Notes: generated from the letters alone by a model not told the origin. A DNA stretch of 62,731 nucleotides, filler included, from Candidatus Rokuibacteriota bacterium (GCA_031406795.1; 4 parts of 4 records of this genome joined end to end with filler, not necessarily neighbours in it), one strand, 5' to 3'. Numbered from the whole stretch's first letter, positions 1,743 to 56,124 are shown. Numbers and translations: made by a program.

Positions 1743-3484
1743 TCCCCGGCCTCCGGGAAAGCCCGCACGAGGAGCACCTGCTCGCGCGCCTCGGTGGGCA
1801 CATTGAGGTAGCGCAGCGTCCGCTGCACGACTTTCTGGAAGACCGGGCCCGCCACGCTGCCGCCGTAGTTCGCGCCCTTCGGTTCGTCGATCATGACCAG
1901 GACCACCAGCCGCGGGTCGCGCGCCGGGGCCACCCCGATGAACGACGCAAGGTACTTGTGCGACGAGTAGGTTTTCAGCAGCGGGTCGTACTTCTGTGCC
2001 GTGCCGGTCTTGCCCCCGATGGCGTAGCCTTCGACGGCGGCGGCCTTGCCGGTCCCCTCCTCGACGACGTGCACGAGGGTCTCGACGACCTGACGGCTGG
2101 TCTCGGCGGAGATCACCTGCCGCACCTTCTGCGGCTCGAAGCTCTTGAGCACCACCCCCTCCGGGCTCACCAGCTCACGCGCGACGCGGGGTCGCCAGAG
2201 CACTCCGCCGTTCACCGCGGCCGCAAACGCCGTCGCCATCTGCACCGGCGTCACGGAAATCTCCTGGCCGATGGCGACCGAGGCGATCGAGCGCCCCGAC
2301 CACCGGGACACCGGCCGCAACATGCCGATGGCCTCCCCGGGCAGGTCGATCCCGGTCTTGTCGCCGAAGCCGAAGGCCTTGAGGTACTGGTGGTATTTTT
2401 CCGCACCGACGCGCATGGCGATCTTTGTCGAACCGATGTTGCTCGACTTGCCGATGATGTCGTTCACGGCGAGCACGCCGTAGGGGTGCACGTCGTGGAG
2501 CGCCCCGCCCTGGAACGGCATGGAGCCGTTCTCGCAGTTGAACAAGGTCTCGCGGGTCACCACCCGCTCCTCGAGCGCCGCGGAGAGCAGGAAGGTCTTC
2601 ATGATCGAGCCCGGTTCGAGCGCGTCGCCGATGCTGCGGTTGCGCAGCGCAGCCTGGGTGCAGGCGGCCGGCTCGTTCGGGTTGAAGAACGGGACGTTGG
2701 CCATCGCGAGAACCTCGCCGCTGCGCGGGTCGAGCACGACGATGCTGCCGCCGGCGGCCCGGGCCGACTCGACGCCGCGCCCGAGTTCCTCCTGCGCGAT
2801 GAACTGGATGACTTCATCGAGCGTGAGCCGCAGCTCGTCCCCCTCGCGCAGCGCTTCCAGCGGCGGTCCGGAAACCATGATGTCCTTGCCGAAGGCGTCC
2901 TGCTCGGCCATGACGACGACTGCCGCGCGCGCGAGATCCCGGTCATACCCCAGCTCGAGCCCGGAGAGCCCCTGGCTATCCATCCCGGCGATGCCCAGGA
3001 CCTGCGCGCCGAACTCGCGCTGCGGGTAGAAGCGGCGGTTTTCCTTCCTGAACCCCACACCCTGCCAGCCCATCGCGGCGATGCCGCTCGAAACCGCCGG
3101 GGAGACCCGCCGCTCGAGCCAGACGAACGGCCGCTTCTTCTCGAGCTCCCGCGTGTACCGGGCTGCATTCTTGCCGGTGGCGGCCGCGAGGCGCTGGGCG
3201 ACGGCCCGCTTGTCGACGATCTGCGCGGGGACGCCGTAGACCGAGTCGACCTCGACGTCGACCGCCAGGCGCCGCCCCGCCCGGTCCGCGATGATGCCGC
3301 GCTTGGGGAGAAACTGGATTTCCTCGGCGAGTTGCTCGGCGGCCCGCGCGGAAAGCCGCTGATGCCCCGTCACCTGCAGCGAGAAGAGCCGGCCGATGAT
3401 GGCCGCGGCGACCAGCACGAGGCACCCGGTGATCAGCAAGATCCGGCTTCTGACCTGCCGGCGCAGCTGCCGCTCCATCGCCAT
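1739..3484 (-). CDS. ftsI: Penicillin-binding protein 3 / FtsI
   Basis: N-terminal TM, RGIIADR, EPGSIMK (SxxK), SSN, KTGTAQK motifs; dcw position. Confidence 0.93.
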   Translation of the reverse strand: MAMERQLRRQVRSRILLITGCLVLVAAAIIGRLFSLQVTGHQRLSARAAEQLAEEIQFLPKRGIIADRAGRRLAVDVEVDSVYGVPAQIVDKRAVAQRLAAATGKNAARYTRELEKKRPFVWLERRVSPAVSSGIAAMGWQGVGFRKENRRFYPQREFGAQVLGIAGMDSQGLSGLELGYDRDLARAAVVVMAEQDAFGKDIMVSGPPLEALREGDELRLTLDEVIQFIAQEELGRGVESARAAGGSIVVLDPRSGEVLAMANVPFFNPNEPAACTQAALRNRSIGDALEPGSIMKTFLLSAALEERVVTRETLFNCENGSMPFQGGALHDVHPYGVLAVNDIIGKSSNIGSTKIAMRVGAEKYHQYLKAFGFGDKTGIDLPGEAIGMLRPVSRWSGRSIASVAIGQEISVTPVQMATAFAAAVNGGVLWRPRVARELVSPEGVVLKSFEPQKVRQVISAETSRQVVETLVHVVEEGTGKAAAVEGYAIGGKTGTAQKYDPLLKTYSSHKYLASFIGVAPARDPRLVVLVMIDEPKGANYGGSVAGPVFQKVVQRTLRYLNVPTEAREQVLLVRAFPEAGE

Positions 3485-11933: not shown

Positions 11934-12033
11934 NNNNNNNNNNNNNNNNNNNNNNNNNNNNNNNNNNNNNNNNNNNNTTAATTAATTAANNNNNNNNNNN
12001 NNNNNNNNNNNNNNNNNNNNNNNNNNNNNNNNN
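11934..12033. other. Artificial contig linker
   Basis: N run with central TTAATTAATTAA (stops in six frames). Confidence 0.98.
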
Positions 12034-15120: not shown

Positions 15121-15551
15121 AGTTTCCCCTTTTCCCACTCGGCTTGTGCACCCCGCTGTACCCGAAACAACGGATGCGGTTGTGGTCGTTTCACTGTTTC
15201 AAGATTCGCCCGCCATTGCGGATTGCGCACTCTCAGTTTCTCCATCAAATGACTCCATTCAAACTGAAGCTGGCCACGCGTCACATCGGACTGGCCTGAA
15301 GCCCGAGATCGACTGATCTTTCGACTATCAAAATGATAGCCGCGAGTCACCGCCTCAATGTGTACGATTCGCAGATATTCCGCAATGGCGCCGAGCGGTG
15401 AAGGTTGCTTCTGAAACCGAACGAGCTGGGAATGGTTGGCATACCCTCTCGTCTTTCCACTGAGCACTGCCTGAGCAAGAAGTCCTTCTCGCCACAGGGC
15501 AACCAGACCGGGCGGGTCAAGGTACTTCGGATGCAGACTCCAAATGCGCAT
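15078..15551 (-). CDS. Pyrimidine-dimer DNA glycosylase / endonuclease V family (cassette gene)
   Basis: MRIWSLHPKYLD..GLVALWREGLLAQAVL.G.TRGY.NH.QL.RF signature; lower GC than flanks. Confidence 0.85.
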   Translation of the reverse strand: MRIWSLHPKYLDPPGLVALWREGLLAQAVLSGKTRGYANHSQLVRFQKQPSPLGAIAEYLRIVHIEAVTRGYHFDSRKISRSRASGQSDVTRGQLQFEWSHLMEKLRVRNPQWRANLETVKRPQPHPLFRVQRGAQAEWEKGKLPNPYKALLKNSPA

Positions 15552-15573
15552 GGTTGTCGTTTACTCTTCTCGA

Positions 15574-15675
15574 GCACAACGTCGCAATGAATTGTGGGTG
15601 CGCCTTTACACCCGGATTGACAGAGTCCTTGTCCCGATAGCAGCCGTCGGCTCCATTGCCTTATAAGTGTTCGCC
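15574..15675 (-). mobile_element. attC site of the TA cassette
   Basis: R'' GGCGAAC, L'' AATGGAGC+CGAC, L' ATTCATT, R' GTTGTGC; starts 4 nt after the toxin stop. Confidence 0.75.
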
Positions 15676-15679
15676 GGTG

Positions 15680-15961
15680 CTATTTGCTTTTCAAATGTGT
15701 TTTCAAATCTCTGTAGTAATTTTGGTGCGGTCCGATCATTATCAACTCGAGGCTATCACTGCTGAAACGGTACGCAAGAAGATACAATTGGTTCATCAAA
15801 TTAAACTTATGGACAAAAATACCTCTCAGGTCGCCTTTCTTTTCAGTTCCGATAGAAGGATTTTGAATGATCTGATTAATTTCGCTATCTAGTTCTAGTT
15901 TTTCTGCTTTAGTAAGTTTTTGTACTCTTTTTTCAAATGACCTTGATTGATAGATTTTCAT
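15680..15961 (-). CDS. RelE/ParE-like type II toxin
   Basis: 93 aa, basic; IG.EKKGDL.G.FVHKF...LLAY...IGPHQNYYRDLK; AT-rich. Confidence 0.85.
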   Translation of the reverse strand: MKIYQSRSFEKRVQKLTKAEKLELDSEINQIIQNPSIGTEKKGDLRGIFVHKFNLMNQLYLLAYRFSSDSLELIMIGPHQNYYRDLKTHLKSK

Positions 15962-15967
15962 CAGGAA

Positions 15968-16195
15968 TCATCCGAATTGATATTCTGCCTTTTCGTTCTG
16001 ATCCAATTCTTCCAAACCGACCAAGATTTCTCTTATCAGATGGTAGGTTAAATCTGAGTTTTCTTCGGCGCACTTACCGATTGCTGCCCAGTGCTCAATT
16101 TGACCAGTCACCGAACGATGCTCAATCTTGCTGAATTTCCGTGCTTCATTTACCAACAGTTCAGATATTCTCACCGCGGTTGCCATTTTGCCCAC
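15968..16195 (-). CDS. ParD-like antitoxin
   Basis: AVRIS..LV..A......RS..GQIEHWA.IGK.AEEN.DL motif; directly upstream of the toxin. Confidence 0.85.
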   Translation of the reverse strand: MGKMATAVRISELLVNEARKFSKIEHRSVTGQIEHWAAIGKCAEENSDLTYHLIREILVGLEELDQNEKAEYQFG

Positions 16196-16231
16196 CTACT
16201 CTCCCTTTAAGATTTATGCCGTGCGCATAGC

Positions 16232-16257
16232 ATGCAACATTACATTGCATATTGCAA
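16232..16257. promoter_or_regulatory. Probable TA operator/promoter palindromes
   Basis: Overlapping ATGCAA-N7-TTGCAT and TTGCA-TAT-TGCAA about 40 bp upstream of the antitoxin. Confidence 0.55.
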
Positions 16258-16282
16258 CCTATCGTTTCCTTTTGTTCTTTCT

Positions 16283-16342
16283 GGCGAGTAGCGTTTAGCC
16301 GCGGGCGTGACCGTCATCTACAACGCCTTATAAGGGTCAGGT
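16283..16342 (-). mobile_element. Short attC site of the quinone-reductase cassette
   Basis: ACCTGAC-CCTTATAAGGC-GTTGTAGA-TGAC...GCTAAAC-GCTAC-TCGCC; arms nearly identical to the attC at 24453. Confidence 0.7.
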
Positions 16343-16938
16343 GATACTTTGGAATATCGCTCTGAAATTATGCACGAGATTTCGGCAAGCCAGGTTTTCC
16401 GTTCAGTCTCGGTGCTGGTCACGACAACACCAAAGGTTCTCCGATAGAAATCACTCACCCCGCAGAGATCGAATATGCAGTTCTTCCAGATGAGTTCCAA
16501 GGGGTCTCCAAATACGGACTGCTCTCTTTCTGCATTGGTGTTTGATGTATTGAAAACAGTGGCCGACCGAGCATTCAGGAGACCTCTTGGGACGCCTTCT
16601 CCCTTGTCCCCTTCAATGAACTCGTATGCAACCCCAGGTCGAATTACTCGATCAACCCATCCCTTTAAAATGGCTGGGGGTTGCCCCCACCAATTTGGGT
16701 GAATGATGACAATCCCTGAGGCGGTCGATATTTCGGAACAGTGCTTTTCAATATCAGGGGACAATGTGACATCCTTGGGAAGCTCGCCGACCGGCAAAAC
16801 ACAGTCGAACCGCTCTGCGTACAAGTCATGGAAATTGACCTTGTGGCCGTTTGCTTGGAGGACAGCAACGCAAGTAGATGCAATGGCGTGGTTGAAACTG
16901 CCGTTATCGGGGTGTGCTAGAACTACTGAGACCGCCAT
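16318..16938 (-). CDS. Flavodoxin-fold NAD(P)H-dependent oxidoreductase (cassette gene)
   Basis: LAHP...SFNHA, HDLY, HPNWWGQPPAILKGWVDRV; start trimmed to MAVSVV. Confidence 0.85.
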   Translation of the reverse strand: MAVSVVLAHPDNGSFNHAIASTCVAVLQANGHKVNFHDLYAERFDCVLPVGELPKDVTLSPDIEKHCSEISTASGIVIIHPNWWGQPPAILKGWVDRVIRPGVAYEFIEGDKGEGVPRGLLNARSATVFNTSNTNAEREQSVFGDPLELIWKNCIFDLCGVSDFYRRTFGVVVTSTETERKTWLAEISCIISERYSKVSPDPYKAL

Positions 16939-21790: not shown

Positions 21791-23452
21791 ATGAGCGCAC
21801 AGCGCACCAGGACGGTCTACGTCACCGGCCACACGACGCCGGACACGGACTCGGTCTGTTCCGCCATCGCCTACGCCTACTTCAAGAGCCAGACGGACCG
21901 GTCGCACCTGTTCACCCCGGTGCGCGCCGGCAAGCTCAACCACGAAACCGCGTTCGTGCTCGAGCGGTTCGGTGTCCCCGTCCCGGCGGAGATCGACAGC
22001 CTCGTCGCCACCGTCAGCGATCTGGTGCTCAAGCGCCCGATCACCGTCGGGGTCAACGACTCCGTGCAGGCGCTGGCACTGGTGATGCGCGAGCACGGGG
22101 TGCGCTCCGTCCCGGTGGTCGATGAGCGCGGACGGCTGGCGGGGGTGGTGGGGCTCAAGGATATCGCCGGCCACTACATGGAGAGCGTCGGCTTCTCGGA
22201 TCTGGCGAAGGCGCCGATCGATCTGGACATCCTCGTGAAGACCCTCGACGGGCTCGTGCTGGGCAACCCGCGGCAACTCTCCGTCCTCACCGGGCGGGTC
22301 CTGATCGCCGCGATGCAGCGCGCCACGCTGCTGCACCGCGTGCGCCCCGGCGATGTCGTCGTCGTCGGCGACCAGAACGACGTGCAGCTCGAGCTGATCA
22401 GGATGGGCTGCTCGGCGGTGGTCGTCGCCGACGGCGCACCCTGCGCGGCCGAGGTCGTCGCGGCGGCCGTCGCGCGGGGCGTGCTGCTGCTCTCCTCGCC
22501 GCACCCGGCCTTCGCCACCGTGCAGCTGATGACCATGGCCGAGCCGGTCTCCTCGATCATGACCGTCGCCTGTCCGACCGCCGGTCTCTACACGCCGATG
22601 GCCGAGGTGCGCTCGCGCATCGTGGAGTCCGAGTACCGATCCGTCGTCGTCGAAGACAGCGACCACCGCCTGATCGGCTTCATCACCCGGACGGATCTGC
22701 TGACGCCGGTGCGCAAACTGGCGATCCTGGTGGACCACAACGAACTCTCGCAGGCGGTCGACGGCGTCGAGGAGGCGGAGATCCTCGAGATCATCGACCA
22801 CCACCGCGTCGGCGACATCTCGACCACGGCGCCGATCTACGTCTACAACGACCCGGTCGGCAGCACCTGCACCGTCGTTTCGGGGATCATGCTGCTGCAC
22901 CAGACGCACCTCCCGCCGGAGATCGCCGGCATCCTGCTCTCGGGCATCCTCTCGGACACGCTGCTGCTGACGCTCTCGACGACCACCGAGCGCGATCGCG
23001 CGACGGCCGCCCGTCTGGCCGCGATCGCGGGCGTCGACATCCCCGCCTACGCCCGCGAGTTGCTGCACGCGAGCATCAACCTCGAGGGCAAGAGCGCCGC
23101 CGAGCTGATCGCGGCGGACTTCAAGGAATTCCTGATCGGCGGCAAGAAGCTGGGCGTCAGCCAGATGATGGCCCTCGACTGCGAAGAGATCGCCGCGCGC
23201 GAGCCCGAGCTGCTCGAGGAACTCGAGCGCCTGCGCGTGGCGGGCAAGTACGATCTGGCGGTACTGCTGGTGCTCAACCCGCTCGGCAAGAAGCAGGAGC
23301 GCATCCTGGTGCGGGGCGAAGCCTGGATGGTGGAGAAAGCCTTCGGCGTGGCCGTGTCGGCGGGCGCCTGCACCGTCCCGCGGGTGCTCTCCCGCAAGAA
23401 GGACTTCATCCCGGCGATCGGCCAGGTGCTCAGCCTGGGCCGGGGCCGCTAG
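21791..23452 (+). CDS. ppaC: Family II Mn-dependent inorganic pyrophosphatase with CBS-DRTGG-CBS insert
   Basis: GH..PDTDS, CBS pair, LVDHNE, IIDHHR, ILSDTL, DFKEF, SRKKDFIP. Confidence 0.9.
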   Translation: MSAQRTRTVYVTGHTTPDTDSVCSAIAYAYFKSQTDRSHLFTPVRAGKLNHETAFVLERFGVPVPAEIDSLVATVSDLVLKRPITVGVNDSVQALALVMREHGVRSVPVVDERGRLAGVVGLKDIAGHYMESVGFSDLAKAPIDLDILVKTLDGLVLGNPRQLSVLTGRVLIAAMQRATLLHRVRPGDVVVVGDQNDVQLELIRMGCSAVVVADGAPCAAEVVAAAVARGVLLLSSPHPAFATVQLMTMAEPVSSIMTVACPTAGLYTPMAEVRSRIVESEYRSVVVEDSDHRLIGFITRTDLLTPVRKLAILVDHNELSQAVDGVEEAEILEIIDHHRVGDISTTAPIYVYNDPVGSTCTVVSGIMLLHQTHLPPEIAGILLSGILSDTLLLTLSTTTERDRATAARLAAIAGVDIPAYARELLHASINLEGKSAAELIAADFKEFLIGGKKLGVSQMMALDCEEIAAREPELLEELERLRVAGKYDLAVLLVLNPLGKKQERILVRGEAWMVEKAFGVAVSAGACTVPRVLSRKKDFIPAIGQVLSLGRGR

Positions 23453-23999
23453 CCGGCGGCACGGCAAAGGCCAGGAGCCAGTAGCCTCGGTTCTCGAAAG
23501 CGAAGTCGCCCACCAGCGTCATTCCCAGCCCCTCGGCGTGGGACGCCAGCGAGTGAGGGTTGTCTTTGGCGATGAACAGCGTGCCGGCGTCGAAGTCTCC
23601 GGCAAGTTCGCGGCACAGCGCGTCATAGAGACCGCGCAGCACACCCTGGCCGCGGCGCACGCGCGCCACGCAGACGGGCCCGTACACGAAACAGCGCTGC
23701 GCGCTCAGTGCGAGCCCGAGAAACTGCACGTGGGGAAACCGCTCGATCATCGCCGCGAGCAGGAGGATGCGCCGGCTGAACGCCAGGGTCGACGCACACA
23801 GATAACCGGCGACGACCTCACCGTCCACGGCGGCCAGCACTGCCAGATCGCGCTCCATCTCCCCGAACTGCGCGGCGGTGAAGCGCACCGAAAGAAAGCC
23901 CTCCCGCCGCTGGCCGACGGTCAGGTTTTCGTGGAGATTGGCTTCCTGGAGCGCGAGCACTTTCGGCAGATGTCGTGCTCTGAGGCGCTGGTAAATCAT
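23430..23999 (-). CDS. GNAT-family acetyltransferase
   Basis: YGPVCVA...RGQG motif A; N..SLA.H..LG. Confidence 0.75.
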   Translation of the reverse strand: MIYQRLRARHLPKVLALQEANLHENLTVGQRREGFLSVRFTAAQFGEMERDLAVLAAVDGEVVAGYLCASTLAFSRRILLLAAMIERFPHVQFLGLALSAQRCFVYGPVCVARVRRGQGVLRGLYDALCRELAGDFDAGTLFIAKDNPHSLASHAEGLGMTLVGDFAFENRGYWLLAFAVPPASGPGPG

Positions 24000-24233: not shown

Positions 24234-24333
24234 NNNNNNNNNNNNNNNNNNNNNNNNNNNNNNNNNNNNNNNNNNNNTTAATTAATTAANNNNNNNNNNN
24301 NNNNNNNNNNNNNNNNNNNNNNNNNNNNNNNNN
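24234..24333. other. Artificial contig linker
   Basis: N run with TTAATTAATTAA. Confidence 0.98.
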
Positions 24334-24364: not shown

Positions 24365-24452
24365 GCTCTCCTTGGATCGCAGTGACGGAACACTGGGTTC
24401 AATCGGCCCTCCTGCACCGTTGAACTGTCTTGAGTAAGCGACCTCGTGTCGC

Positions 24453-24583
24453 AACCAACGTAGCGTTTAGCCGCAGGCGCGCTTGCCTGCCCGCCCTTAC
24501 ACATTGCTTCTTCACTCACCCTGGATTCAAAGGGCAGAAATGCAAGCGTGACTGTCGGCTACAACGCCTTGATTCCCTATTCC
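24453..24583 (-). mobile_element. attC site of the first integron cassette
   Basis: L'' GTT[G]TAGC pairs with L' GCTAAAC leaving one extrahelical base; inner arms CGCTTGC/GCAAGCG; R' GTTGGTT; R'' degenerate. Confidence 0.8.
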
Positions 24584-24921
24584 TCGACCAGATACTCTTC
24601 ATCACTGAGATCCAGCACCATGGTTAGAAACTCGACCTGAAACCATTGCTTGAATGTCTTGAGATCCCTCTTCTTTGGCCATGCGGATTCATCGGTAACC
24701 CAGCCAAACAACTCCTCCTCGAATATTTGTTTGAAGTTTTCCGCGACAACTTGATTCTTCTCCGAATCCGTTTCGTAGTCATGCACCAAATAGACGTTGG
24801 GTTCTTCACGAATTTTTTTGGTGGTAATGTCGCTGCTGCTGGCATCCACACTTCGAACCCACTCAACGAATGGTATCTTTGGCCTGACAATGATTGCAGC
24901 TCGATTCGCGATCATCCTCAT
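24577..24921 (-). CDS. Cassette-encoded hypothetical protein
   Basis: 114 aa, AT-rich, NRAAIIVRPK.PF..W...IFEEEL.GW..DE..WP..R....F..WF; bounded by attI and attC. Confidence 0.8.
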   Translation of the reverse strand: MRMIANRAAIIVRPKIPFVEWVRSVDASSSDITTKKIREEPNVYLVHDYETDSEKNQVVAENFKQIFEEELFGWVTDESAWPKKRDLKTFKQWFQVEFLTMVLDLSDEEYLVEE

Positions 24922-24938: not shown

Positions 24939-24960
24939 ATCTAACAGTCAAATAGAAGGG
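24939..24960 (-). mobile_element. attI core site
   Basis: CCCTTCTATTTGACT|GTTAGAT (GTTRRRY) 18 nt before the first cassette ORF, on the 5' side of intI. Confidence 0.65.
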
Positions 24961-25103
24961 AAGGCGGGGTGTGTAATGGCGCCACAACTGCAAATTCCAG
25001 TTGGGCGGGTTGCTGTAGTAATTAAATATGCTCGCGTGGCGTGTAGCACGGTCCTTGCTCTCCCTCTGCATCGCGGATCGGATTCGCCGGGAGGATCGCG
25101 ACG

Positions 25104-26462
25104 ATGGTAATGAGCATGGGAGAGCGGGTCAAGGGAAAATATCTCGACATTTCAACGATCTGGGAGGAGTTGTCGGCGGCGCTGCTCCGCGGTGGCATTG
25201 ACGCGGCGACCGCCGAGGTACGGGTGAATTGGGCCAGGAGTTTCTTGAACGGTTCGCCGAGTGTCCCCCTGGCGGACAGGTCAGCCGGCGACATCGACCG
25301 ATTTCTCGCTTCGCTCCTCGAGGTACGCAGGTTCGATGCACGATACCAGCAGCACGCTGCCGACGCGCTTCGGGTCCTGTATCGGGAAGTCCTGATGGTG
25401 CCCTGGGCGGTCGCGAAGGATTGGTCACCCGCAACCAGCGGCCCCGGAAGGCCGGTGGCCGCCGCTCAGGCCGCCCCGCGGCAGCACAGCGGCATGCTGC
25501 CGGATGCGCAGCGGGAGGCGATCGGGCGCCTGCGGACCGAAATCCGCACGCGCCACTACTCGCCGCGCACGGAGCAGGCCTACCAGCAATGGGCGGTGCG
25601 GTATCTGGCTTTCGAGCGGGGCCGCGCGGGCGATGCGCCGCGGGTGGTGCTGGTGCGGGAGTTCCTTGAGGAGCTGGCGACGGTCGGCAAGGTCGCCGCC
25701 AGCACGCAGAATCAGGCCCTGAACGCGCTGGCGTTCTTCTTCGAAAAGGCCGTCGGCGCACCCCTCGGCGCTATCGGAGATTTCGTCAGGGCCAAGCGCC
25801 CAACGCGGATTCCCGTGGTGCTTTCTCGCGATGAGGTGGCCCGTCTGCTGGCCGCCATCCCCGGCGTGTACCGGCTGATGGCGCAGCTCCTCTACGGCAG
25901 CGGATTGCGCCTGATGGAGTGCGTCACCCTGCGCGTGAGGGATCTGGACTTCGAGCGGCAGCAGCTGGTCATCCGTGAAGGCAAGGGGATGAAGGACCGA
26001 GTCACCGTGCTCTCGCGGAACCTCCAGAGACCGCTCCAGGAGCACCTCGGGCGGGTTCGGACCCTCCATGATCTCGATCTGAGCCGAGGGTACGGGGCAA
26101 CGGTGCTGTCGCCGGGGCTCGCGCGCCGGCAGCCGAACGCGCGTTGCGAATGGCTGTGGCAGTTCGTCTTTCCCGCCAGCCGCCTGATGGTAGACGGTGG
26201 CGACGGCGGTGTCGTGCGGCCGCACGTGCACGAGACGCTGCTCCAGCGAGCGGTGCGAGACGCCGGACGGCGGTCCGTGCTGACGAAGCCGGTCGGTTGC
26301 CACACGCTGCGGCACTGTTTTGCGACGCACCTGCTCGAAGACGGGTACGACATCCGCACTGTGCAGGAGTTGCTCGGACACGCCGATGTCTCGACGACGA
26401 TGATCTACACCCACGTCCTGCAGAAACCCGGGCAGCCGGTGCGCAGCCCGGCGGATCGCTGA
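25104..26462 (+). CDS. intI: Integron integrase with N-terminal extension
   Basis: RHYSPRTEQAY..W, STQNQALNAL, YGSGLRLME, GKGMKDR, integron-specific insert (GYG...LARR.P.A..EW.WQFVFP), HTLRH, LGH, TTMIYTH. Confidence 0.93.
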   Translation: MVMSMGERVKGKYLDISTIWEELSAALLRGGIDAATAEVRVNWARSFLNGSPSVPLADRSAGDIDRFLASLLEVRRFDARYQQHAADALRVLYREVLMVPWAVAKDWSPATSGPGRPVAAAQAAPRQHSGMLPDAQREAIGRLRTEIRTRHYSPRTEQAYQQWAVRYLAFERGRAGDAPRVVLVREFLEELATVGKVAASTQNQALNALAFFFEKAVGAPLGAIGDFVRAKRPTRIPVVLSRDEVARLLAAIPGVYRLMAQLLYGSGLRLMECVTLRVRDLDFERQQLVIREGKGMKDRVTVLSRNLQRPLQEHLGRVRTLHDLDLSRGYGATVLSPGLARRQPNARCEWLWQFVFPASRLMVDGGDGGVVRPHVHETLLQRAVRDAGRRSVLTKPVGCHTLRHCFATHLLEDGYDIRTVQELLGHADVSTTMIYTHVLQKPGQPVRSPADR

Positions 26463-56024: not shown

Positions 56025-56124
56025 NNNNNNNNNNNNNNNNNNNNNNNNNNNNNNNNNNNNNNNNNNNNTTAATTAATTAANNNNNNNNNNNNNNNNNNNN
56101 NNNNNNNNNNNNNNNNNNNNNNNN
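56025..56124. other. Artificial contig linker
   Basis: N run with TTAATTAATTAA. Confidence 0.98.

Follow-up and report, generated by a model that had tools for sequence, protein, structure and literature searches.

An integron integrase of unusual length

The window analysed here, that is the whole stretch of 62,731 nucleotides (nt), stems from Candidatus Rokuibacteriota bacterium (GCA_031406795.1) and consists of four contigs joined by filler. One of these contigs (C255, window positions 24334-56024) carries intI, which encodes a long-form integron integrase (IntI) of 452 amino acids (aa) at 25104..26462 on the plus strand (stop codon included) and was identified from the list of open reading frames (ORFs), the family TIGR02249 and the structure of VchIntIA/IntI4 (2a3v). 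A first-pass annotation of the window had taken this 452-aa ORF for an integron integrase, and the TIGR02249 'integron integrase' model bears this out with 411 bits against a cut-off of 265, matching residues 141-452 (model positions 3-314 of 315) and giving merely 20.9 bits on the N-terminal extension alone. Likewise, 2a3v (320 aa) aligns to residues 143-452 (E 8e-77) and to nothing N-terminal of residue 143, so that about 135 residues are extra.

The IntI-specific insertion is present, as the alignment to 2a3v continues through it, and it forms part of the catalytic (CAT) domain at residues 239-439 (25818..26420, plus strand; PF00589 with 111 bits and the 2a3v alignment). R269, K294, H400, R403, H426 and Y435 all fall in invariant columns of a 14-sequence alignment, in agreement with the intact R-K-H-R-H-Y set reported in the first-pass annotation. 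The canonical core-binding (CB) domain (residues ~134-221; 25503..25766, plus strand) is matched by PF13495 with 61.6 bits at 142-221 and by the helices of a structural model. On the other flank of intI lie cupin-like, Macro-domain and Leu/Phe-tRNA-protein transferase genes, a chromosomal setting. By its sequence, intI looks like a functional gene for a chromosomal integron integrase that belongs to the long IntI lineage.

A second core-binding-type domain on a flexible linker

What do the additional N-terminal residues consist of? In the full-length protein Pfam finds PF13495 (Phage_int_SAM_4) twice and PF00589 (Phage_integrase) once, so that both Phage_int_SAM_4 matches for which the first-pass annotation had proposed a scan were recovered (22-101 and 142-221), and when residues 1-135 are scanned alone PF13495 is still found at 22-101 with 32.5 bits (E 1.2e-7, gathering cut-off 27). 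For the extension, a profile was taken from an alignment of 119 long-form sequences (A4); compared by hhalign with the CB profile of the same proteins, it matched over 87 collinear columns with a probability of 98.7 and E 1.6e-16. A second profile made of 17 extensions from the host genome and the named genomes (alignment A5) retrieved two kinds of solved chain from the PDB, IntI4 by its CB domain (2a3v residues 10-88, E 2.2e-6) and lambda integrase by its core-binding domain (2oxo; 1z1b residues 74-128, E ~1e-5). In an AlphaFold2 (AF2) model computed on A4, with a mean predicted local distance difference test score (pLDDT) of 88.2 and a predicted template modelling score (pTM) of 0.69, the extension forms helices at 16-29, 34-50, 61-73 and 79-96 (pLDDT ~94) that mirror the CB helices at 134-149, 154-172, 180-193 and 199-217 with an offset of ~120 residues. 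In a language-model atlas, taken as a lead only, the neighbours of residues 1-112 are clusters labelled as SAM-like integrase N-domains (score 0.97).

Based on Pfam, hhalign, the search of PDB with a sequence profile and the secondary structure obtained when the full-length protein was modelled, the extension is predicted to have a CB-like fold, and the same Pfam, hhalign, PDB-profile and AF2 evidence gives the layout CB'-linker-CB-CAT. The extra N-terminal domain, a four-helix CB or SAM_4-like unit, spans residues ~15-105 (25146..25418, plus strand) and is followed by a Pro/Ala-rich linker predicted to be flexible (residues ~106-133, SPATSGPGRPVAAAQAAPRQHSG...; 25419..25502, plus strand), in which residues 111-127 have a pLDDT below 50 and which varies between 5 and 67 aa among the 119 long IntI. 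Both elements had been proposed before, the domain as a repeat of the normal N-domain and the linker as a Pro/Ala joint, and the description of the gene proved correct in all checkable points. A complex prediction of the extension (1-112) with the core (128-452) gave a score of 0.08 against a mark of 0.32, which speaks neither for nor against docking of the two. The anatomy of this long IntI and its membership in a lineage, to which we now turn, we consider almost certain.

Distribution and phylogeny of the long form

In the host genome (4.1 Mb) three proteins exceed the TIGR02249 cut-off for integron integrases; they are encoded on C235 (loci L001/L089), C113 (L003/L090) and C255 (the window), and all three carry the extension. 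These paralogues are 47-55% identical overall and 22-34% in the extension, and each lies at a contig end beside an attI-like GTTAG site. Among the 120 best whole-protein matches of a word-index search, 114 have the extension when scored by a profile from the three paralogues, the remaining six being proteins of 293-397 aa. A word-index search with the extension alone returned only the protein's own truncated copy, and a profile search was needed since the extension has diverged beyond the reach of shared 5-mers. Run against 1.84 billion cluster representatives, this profile search gave 1068 clusters (50% identity) at E<=1e-3 and 196 at E<=1e-10, nearly all matching at protein residues ~10-105 and many of them short fragments, as is expected for genes at contig ends. 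The supposition that long integrases exist in databases is borne out.

A scan with one genome per species was evaluated for the best 80 of 591 confirmed relatives and revealed 17 loci with an in-frame extension from at least five phyla; in L021 and L038 the extension was matched in another frame (tblastn), and L064 probably carries it too. Six short-form loci with a long open upstream stretch show a single SAM_4 stretch in Pfam. The protein of Allochromatium palmeri also has one Pfam stretch, yet reaches 65.8 bits with the extension profile, and Pfam architectures therefore under-count the long form. Homologues from low-G+C genomes retain the extension as well. Within the host phylum, which is represented by six species genomes in the collection, five (host included) match the extension, and the relative G003 has three matches.

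In a tree calculated from the core alone (residues 140-452, 79 rows; L025, L036, L052 and L064 were left out on account of incomplete cores), a branch with a Shimodaira-Hasegawa-like approximate likelihood ratio (SH-aLRT) support of 99 has every one of the 22 long forms on the same side, so that a single change of state suffices and the long form is a clade across several phyla rather than a one-off. The long side comprises Gammaproteobacteria, Thermodesulfobacteriota, Nitrospira, Verrucomicrobiota, Fibrobacteraceae and the host phylum, with Desulfuromonadaceae, Desulfobacterales and Desulfatiglandales also inside the clade, and the window protein groups with the C113 paralogue, then with C235 and L019. 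When three Xer-like outgroups from the same genome were added, the free tree was rooted within the long group; constraining the long forms to stay together gave an Xer-rooted tree that was better by 4.9 log-likelihood units and was not rejected by the approximately unbiased test (p-AU 0.556), with long-branch warnings.

Some single members of the family are worth recording. The cores of L009 (Allochromatium palmeri DSM 15591) and L012 (a metagenome-assembled genome of Fibrobacteraceae) are close sisters with end branches of 0.059 and 0.081, which suggests a recent transfer or a binning error. P0211 (583 aa) is IntI-like and its catalytic domain is preceded by three Phage_int_SAM_4 stretches, which would mean that the CB domain was duplicated once more, and P0153 (425 aa) is an apparent truncated or chimeric relative.

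Translation, conservation and selection

Is the extension translated? A Shine-Dalgarno sequence, GGGAGG (25089..25094, plus strand), lies 9 nt before the ATG at 25104, and both paralogues likewise have GGGAGG 7-9 nt ahead of the ATG in front of the extension. The first-pass annotation had pointed to a true start further downstream (MLPDAQ) as what would undo its reading; this rival start, M131 at 25494, has no Shine-Dalgarno sequence.

The extension and the CB domain have a hydrophobic skeleton and a helix-4 motif in common, which in the extension reads WQxxQAxxAL in 103 of 119 sequences and is aligned with STQNQALNAL of the CB domain. About 17 positions of the extension are conserved at 60-96%, and its net charge is family-wide +2.5 +/- 2.6 versus +2.9 for CB. 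With a mean pairwise identity of 31%, versus 47% for CB and 62% for CAT, it is the fastest-evolving domain of the protein. The ratio of nonsynonymous to synonymous substitution rates (dN/dS), calculated for C235 (L001) versus L019 at a dS of 0.86, amounts to 0.18 in the extension (81 codons), 0.13 in the linker, 0.12 in CB and 0.10 in CAT, values that come from the single usable pair, four further pairs being unusable or doubtful with saturated dS. By this codon comparison the extension is a coding sequence on which purifying selection acts, somewhat less tightly than on the rest of the protein.

The attI-like site and the cassettes

Read on the minus strand from intI, an attI-like site, a cassette ORF and an attC follow each other up to the contig end, all divergent from intI. 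The putative attI core GTTAGAT (24939..24945, minus strand) lies within the attI-like GACTGTTAGAT, 159 nt from the intI start and directly before the first cassette, and the paralogous loci have ACTGTTAGCC (C235) and CTGTTAGCG (C113) at the equivalent place. The cassette ORF (24577..24921, minus strand; 114 aa) is of low G+C content and has no Pfam family, and the attC of this first cassette (24452..24578, minus strand; 127 nt) belongs to the same family as the attC sites of C235 and C157, with a degenerate R'' (ATC for AAC). As the integron contig starts at 24334, the finding lies 770 nt from the contig end and the cassette array is cut after these 770 nt.

The C235 locus is more complete: its attI is followed by three cassettes, each ending in an attC. 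Upstream of the attI core two direct repeats GACTGGATAA are found 25 nt apart. Repeats of the form TACGAC(T/G)G(G/T)ATA, followed by CCGCCACC...TAATCAACTGTTAG, occur at L089 505-545 and at L019 1700-1930 (minus strand), and these repeats upstream of attI are recognisable in both C235 and L019 despite a dS of ~0.86 in the adjacent gene. They are candidate accessory binding sites for the integrase.

From C235, C157 and the window twelve attC of one family were extracted. R'' is recognisable in five of the twelve, which have AAC-N5-GTT at both ends, and the nine with both ends, as defined by the pattern, measure 99-129 nt. The form found in C235 is GCTAAC-CAGGC-GTT[G]TAGCC ... GGCTAAAC-GCTAC-GTTAGC. 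When folded, the bottom strand pairs over 6 bp in the R box, leaves a spacer of 3 nt unpaired and pairs again in the L box, whose 3' arm carries two single-base bulges; the energy is -34.8 kcal/mol (z -4.1) and, for the attC of the window, -28.3 kcal/mol (z -4.9). A spacing of 5 nt between R'' and L'' together with this order of R box, spacer and L box is standard attC geometry. One departure concerns a bulged base of the L box, which is a G on the top strand (GTT[G]TAGCC) and so a C on the bottom strand (L089 901-1029, 1608-1706 and 2171-2299; window 24452-24578), whereas the usual bulged L-box base on the bottom strand is G. Near-identical attC sites are found in the cassettes beside two of the three intI genes and in C157, which suggests that integrases only 47-55% identical draw on one shared cassette pool. 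Rfam gave no attC family above threshold on two arrays of the host genome.

Does the spacer vary with the length of the integrase? At the long-IntI loci L019, L014 and L038 the few attC sites identified, with the L box read from the actual pairing, have a spacing of 5 nt, and those of the short-IntI loci L069, L046 and L032 one of 4-5 nt. A scan with a strict motif (AAC-Nk-GTT ... AAC-Nk-GTT with L-box pairing, k 3-12) over the DNA upstream of intI, 57.7 kb for the long and 189 kb for the short form, found 14 sites versus 5 on the control strand, too few to compare long with short forms. For the co-occurrence of long integrases and long spacers that the first-pass annotation had proposed to look for, a sample of 14 sites in 247 kb makes a weak test; no long spacers turned up at L019, L014 and L038.

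Group II introns were observed inside the cassette arrays of C235 and C157. In C235 the third attC is broken exactly at R' (…CTAC|GTGTGCG…), the intron region extends over L089 ~2285-3240 and a reverse-transcriptase-like ORF begins at ~2900. In C157 Rfam recognises three group II intron domains (L091 4411-4489, 6408-6565 and 10740-10816, minus strand). Introns of group IIC that target attC sites are known.

What could the additional domain do?

Taken as a whole, the explanation that fits best is an IntI of the long lineage with a tethered accessory module that contacts DNA at or beside attI, and we lean towards it by a small measure of confidence. The extra CB domain would be a tethered accessory module that binds DNA or organises the synapse. 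Most likely, in our view, it would make a second, lineage-specific contact with nucleic acid at or beside attI and so help to assemble or bias the attI x attC synapse; its tether allows it to touch DNA that lies one to three helical turns away from the core site. This accessory mechanism at attI is proposed tentatively. The CB fold is a DNA-binding fold. In PMC2095811, attI is described as recognised only by its cognate integrase and attC as shared among integrases, and a large N-terminal tag of maltose-binding protein (MBP) as leaving the activity of IntI1 unaffected, so that the N-terminus can bear an extra module. A reader of attI-flanking DNA is favoured on account of the DNA-binding fold, the basic character of the family, the reach of the tether, the fastest evolution of all domains, the specificity for attI and the repeats kept upstream of it. 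The second suggestion of the first-pass annotation, an unusual attI, would be compatible with such a reader. A more specific and distinctly doubtful version would have the extra CB domain read lineage-specific repeats (TACGACTGGATAA-like, as in C235 and L019) and thereby tie each integrase to its own attI platform.

A number of observations weigh against such a contact with DNA. The basic stretch RxRHYSxRTE of the CB domain (R148 96%, R150 88%, R155 85%, T156 100%) is absent from the extension, and the extension of the window protein has a net charge of -1 and carries V39, R40, R80, Y81 and H84 at the family positions W, Y, W, Q and Q. The nearest homologues (P0002-P0005) also deviate at family-conserved residues of the extension, and by these residues the extension may work differently or less in the sub-lineage of the window. 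The attI region of the window has one ACTGGAA alone upstream of the core. Short IntI1 also uses direct repeats in attI1, and repeats at attI therefore do not require an extra domain. The Xer rooting may accommodate a loss of the extension as well as a gain, and DNA contact itself is something we infer. The main rival holds that the extra domain does not bind DNA at all and acts as a protein-protein or regulatory module, be it an additional layer that keeps the tetramer together or a mask over the CB/CAT clamp until substrate arrives. It gains from the loss of the basic, DNA-facing motif, from the charge of -1 and the missing WQxxQ motif in the window's sub-lineage and from a tether as variable as 5 to 67 aa. 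It is nevertheless unlikely in our estimate: the extension is family-wide as basic as CB (+2.5 vs +2.9), its polar helix-4 residues are conserved and aligned with the helix-4 motif of CB, and, as weaker evidence, a pTM of 0.69 and a disordered linker give no sign of fixed docking.

The remaining alternatives can be set against the accessory-module explanation more briefly. Could the extension be a functionless remnant, left by a duplication or fusion and now decaying? Its conservation is the lowest of all domains, with 31% mean identity, and long genes were treated in the pseudogene section of the 2008 study (Nemergut et al. 2008; PMC2426708), and yet a relic is improbable given a dN/dS of 0.18 over 81 codons at dS 0.86, an extension in frame in 114 of 120 homologues and at 17 named-genome loci in at least five phyla, ~17 positions conserved at 60-96% and a fold predicted with high confidence. 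The proposal of the first-pass annotation that the duplicate domain adapts the integrase to attC with unusually long spacers fared worse and appears highly improbable, as the attC of the host show AAC-N5-GTT at both ends, lengths of 99-129 nt and the standard fold, and as the spacings at L019, L014 and L038 (5 nt) and at the short-IntI loci L069, L046 and L032 (4-5 nt) agree in a very small sample; the sole hint in its favour is the extrahelical L-box base, C on the bottom strand in place of the usual G. That the extension might be an artefact of annotation, with the true start at M131 and the upstream frame open by chance, would be conceivable in G+C-rich DNA, where high G+C content gives long stop-free stretches and where the six short-form loci mentioned above have 100-290 open upstream codons without a domain. 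Such chance is next to impossible here, with GGGAGG 9 nt before the ATG at 25104 and nothing comparable before M131, PF13495 above its cut-off on the extension, low-G+C homologues that retain the extension and purifying selection acting on it; the ribosome-binding site, the Pfam match, the low-G+C homologues and the selection together effectively refute the artefact.

Relation to known recombinases

How does the protein compare with systems already described? VchIntIA/IntI4 (2a3v) corresponds to it end to end, residues 143-452 aligning with chain residues 9-319, with the same catalytic residues and insertion, but has no counterpart of the ~135 N-terminal residues of the window protein, i.e. 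of the CB-type domain and its linker. With short IntI (TIGR02249) the gene shares its setting, divergent from attI and from cassettes that end in attC. IntI proteins about 120 aa longer, termed a 'gene fusion', were noted in an earlier survey (Nemergut et al. 2008, BMC Genomics 9:261; PMC2426708), where the long group falls within clade 15, the Deltaproteobacteria clade. As the long clade described here includes Desulfuromonadaceae, Desulfobacterales and Desulfatiglandales, it resembles that group, and we infer that the two are the same. The present clade differs from the group as depicted there (PMC2426708) in that the added piece is identified as a CB homologue and in that it extends to Gammaproteobacteria, Nitrospirota, Verrucomicrobiota, Fibrobacterota and the host phylum.

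In the classification by Smyshlyaev et al. (2021; PMC8138268), integron integrases are treated as simple CB+CAT enzymes and tandem CB domains are given for RitA only, being 'absent in all other YRs' (tyrosine recombinases), a statement which implies that long IntI had not been registered there. Like the window protein, RitA ('recombinase in trio') has two CB domains in succession and counts among the simple tyrosine recombinases (PMC8138268). It differs in belonging to another recombinase subgroup and to a three-recombinase element and in having no IntI insertion; beside the window intI no second or third recombinase gene of a RitB/RitC-type trio was found. A working analogy for the mechanism of long IntI may be seen in the lambda-type arm-binding (AB) domain, likewise an extra N-terminal module borne on a linker, which binds DNA and reads accessory sites near the core site, as summarised in the same classification (PMC8138268). 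AB domains have folds of beta-strands plus a helix according to the preprint of Smyshlyaev et al., whereas the extension of the window protein is modelled with helices only in residues 16-104 (AF2) and is homologous to CB. Within lambda Int it is the core-binding domain, not the arm-binding domain, that the extension resembles in sequence.

The first-pass annotation knew of no function assigned to the extension, and a full-text literature search found none in print and no functional study of long IntI, the 2008 note (Nemergut) being the only mention found. The window gene is thus a further member of a long lineage noted in 2008 and not followed up in the literature searched. What is added here is modest: the homology of the added piece to CB, a core tree that calls for a single origin or a single loss, and purifying selection on the extension, and furthermore the presence of three paralogues in a single genome from a rare phylum and a canonical attC geometry.

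Work on integron integrases has dealt almost exclusively with short, 'simple' recombinases (IntI1, VchIntIA), and the long form accounts for 114 of the 120 closest proteins and for about a quarter of the best 80 of 591 loci of the species scan. If the extension sets the choice of attI or synapsis, the capture rules of short integrases would not fit many environmental integrons. In the doubtful version with lineage-specific repeats, several long integrases in one genome, three in this case, would keep separate attI platforms with a common pool of attC cassettes, and P0211 with its three CB-type domains would be a further step of the same platform-reader process. A long IntI is present in a cultured strain, Allochromatium palmeri DSM 15591 (L009), which could be used for experiments.

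Further features of the window

The contig joints, each N44-TTAATTAATTAA-N44, lie at 11934-12033, 24234-24333 and 56025-56124; features are not readable across them, and the GNAT-like ORF at 23430..23999 is no neighbour of the integron. On another contig, window positions 15400-16800 form an island of low G+C content (39-50% versus ~70% around it) with small ORFs on the minus strand, in which no site with the attC pattern of the host genome was found. A sigma-70-like match resembling a Pc promoter, TTGACC-17-TACCAT (9 of 12 positions), is directed toward the cassettes from the first intI codons (25104..25132, minus strand), a consensus match of which the scan gave 1 site with 0.4 expected. Finally, a conserved block AAG(A)CC(A/G)TGCTA.ACGCC was read by eye 40-50 nt upstream of all three intI starts, at ~25040-25060 (minus strand) in the window, at ~470-490 in L089 and at ~925-945 in L090, and may be the promoter of intI or the site of a regulator.

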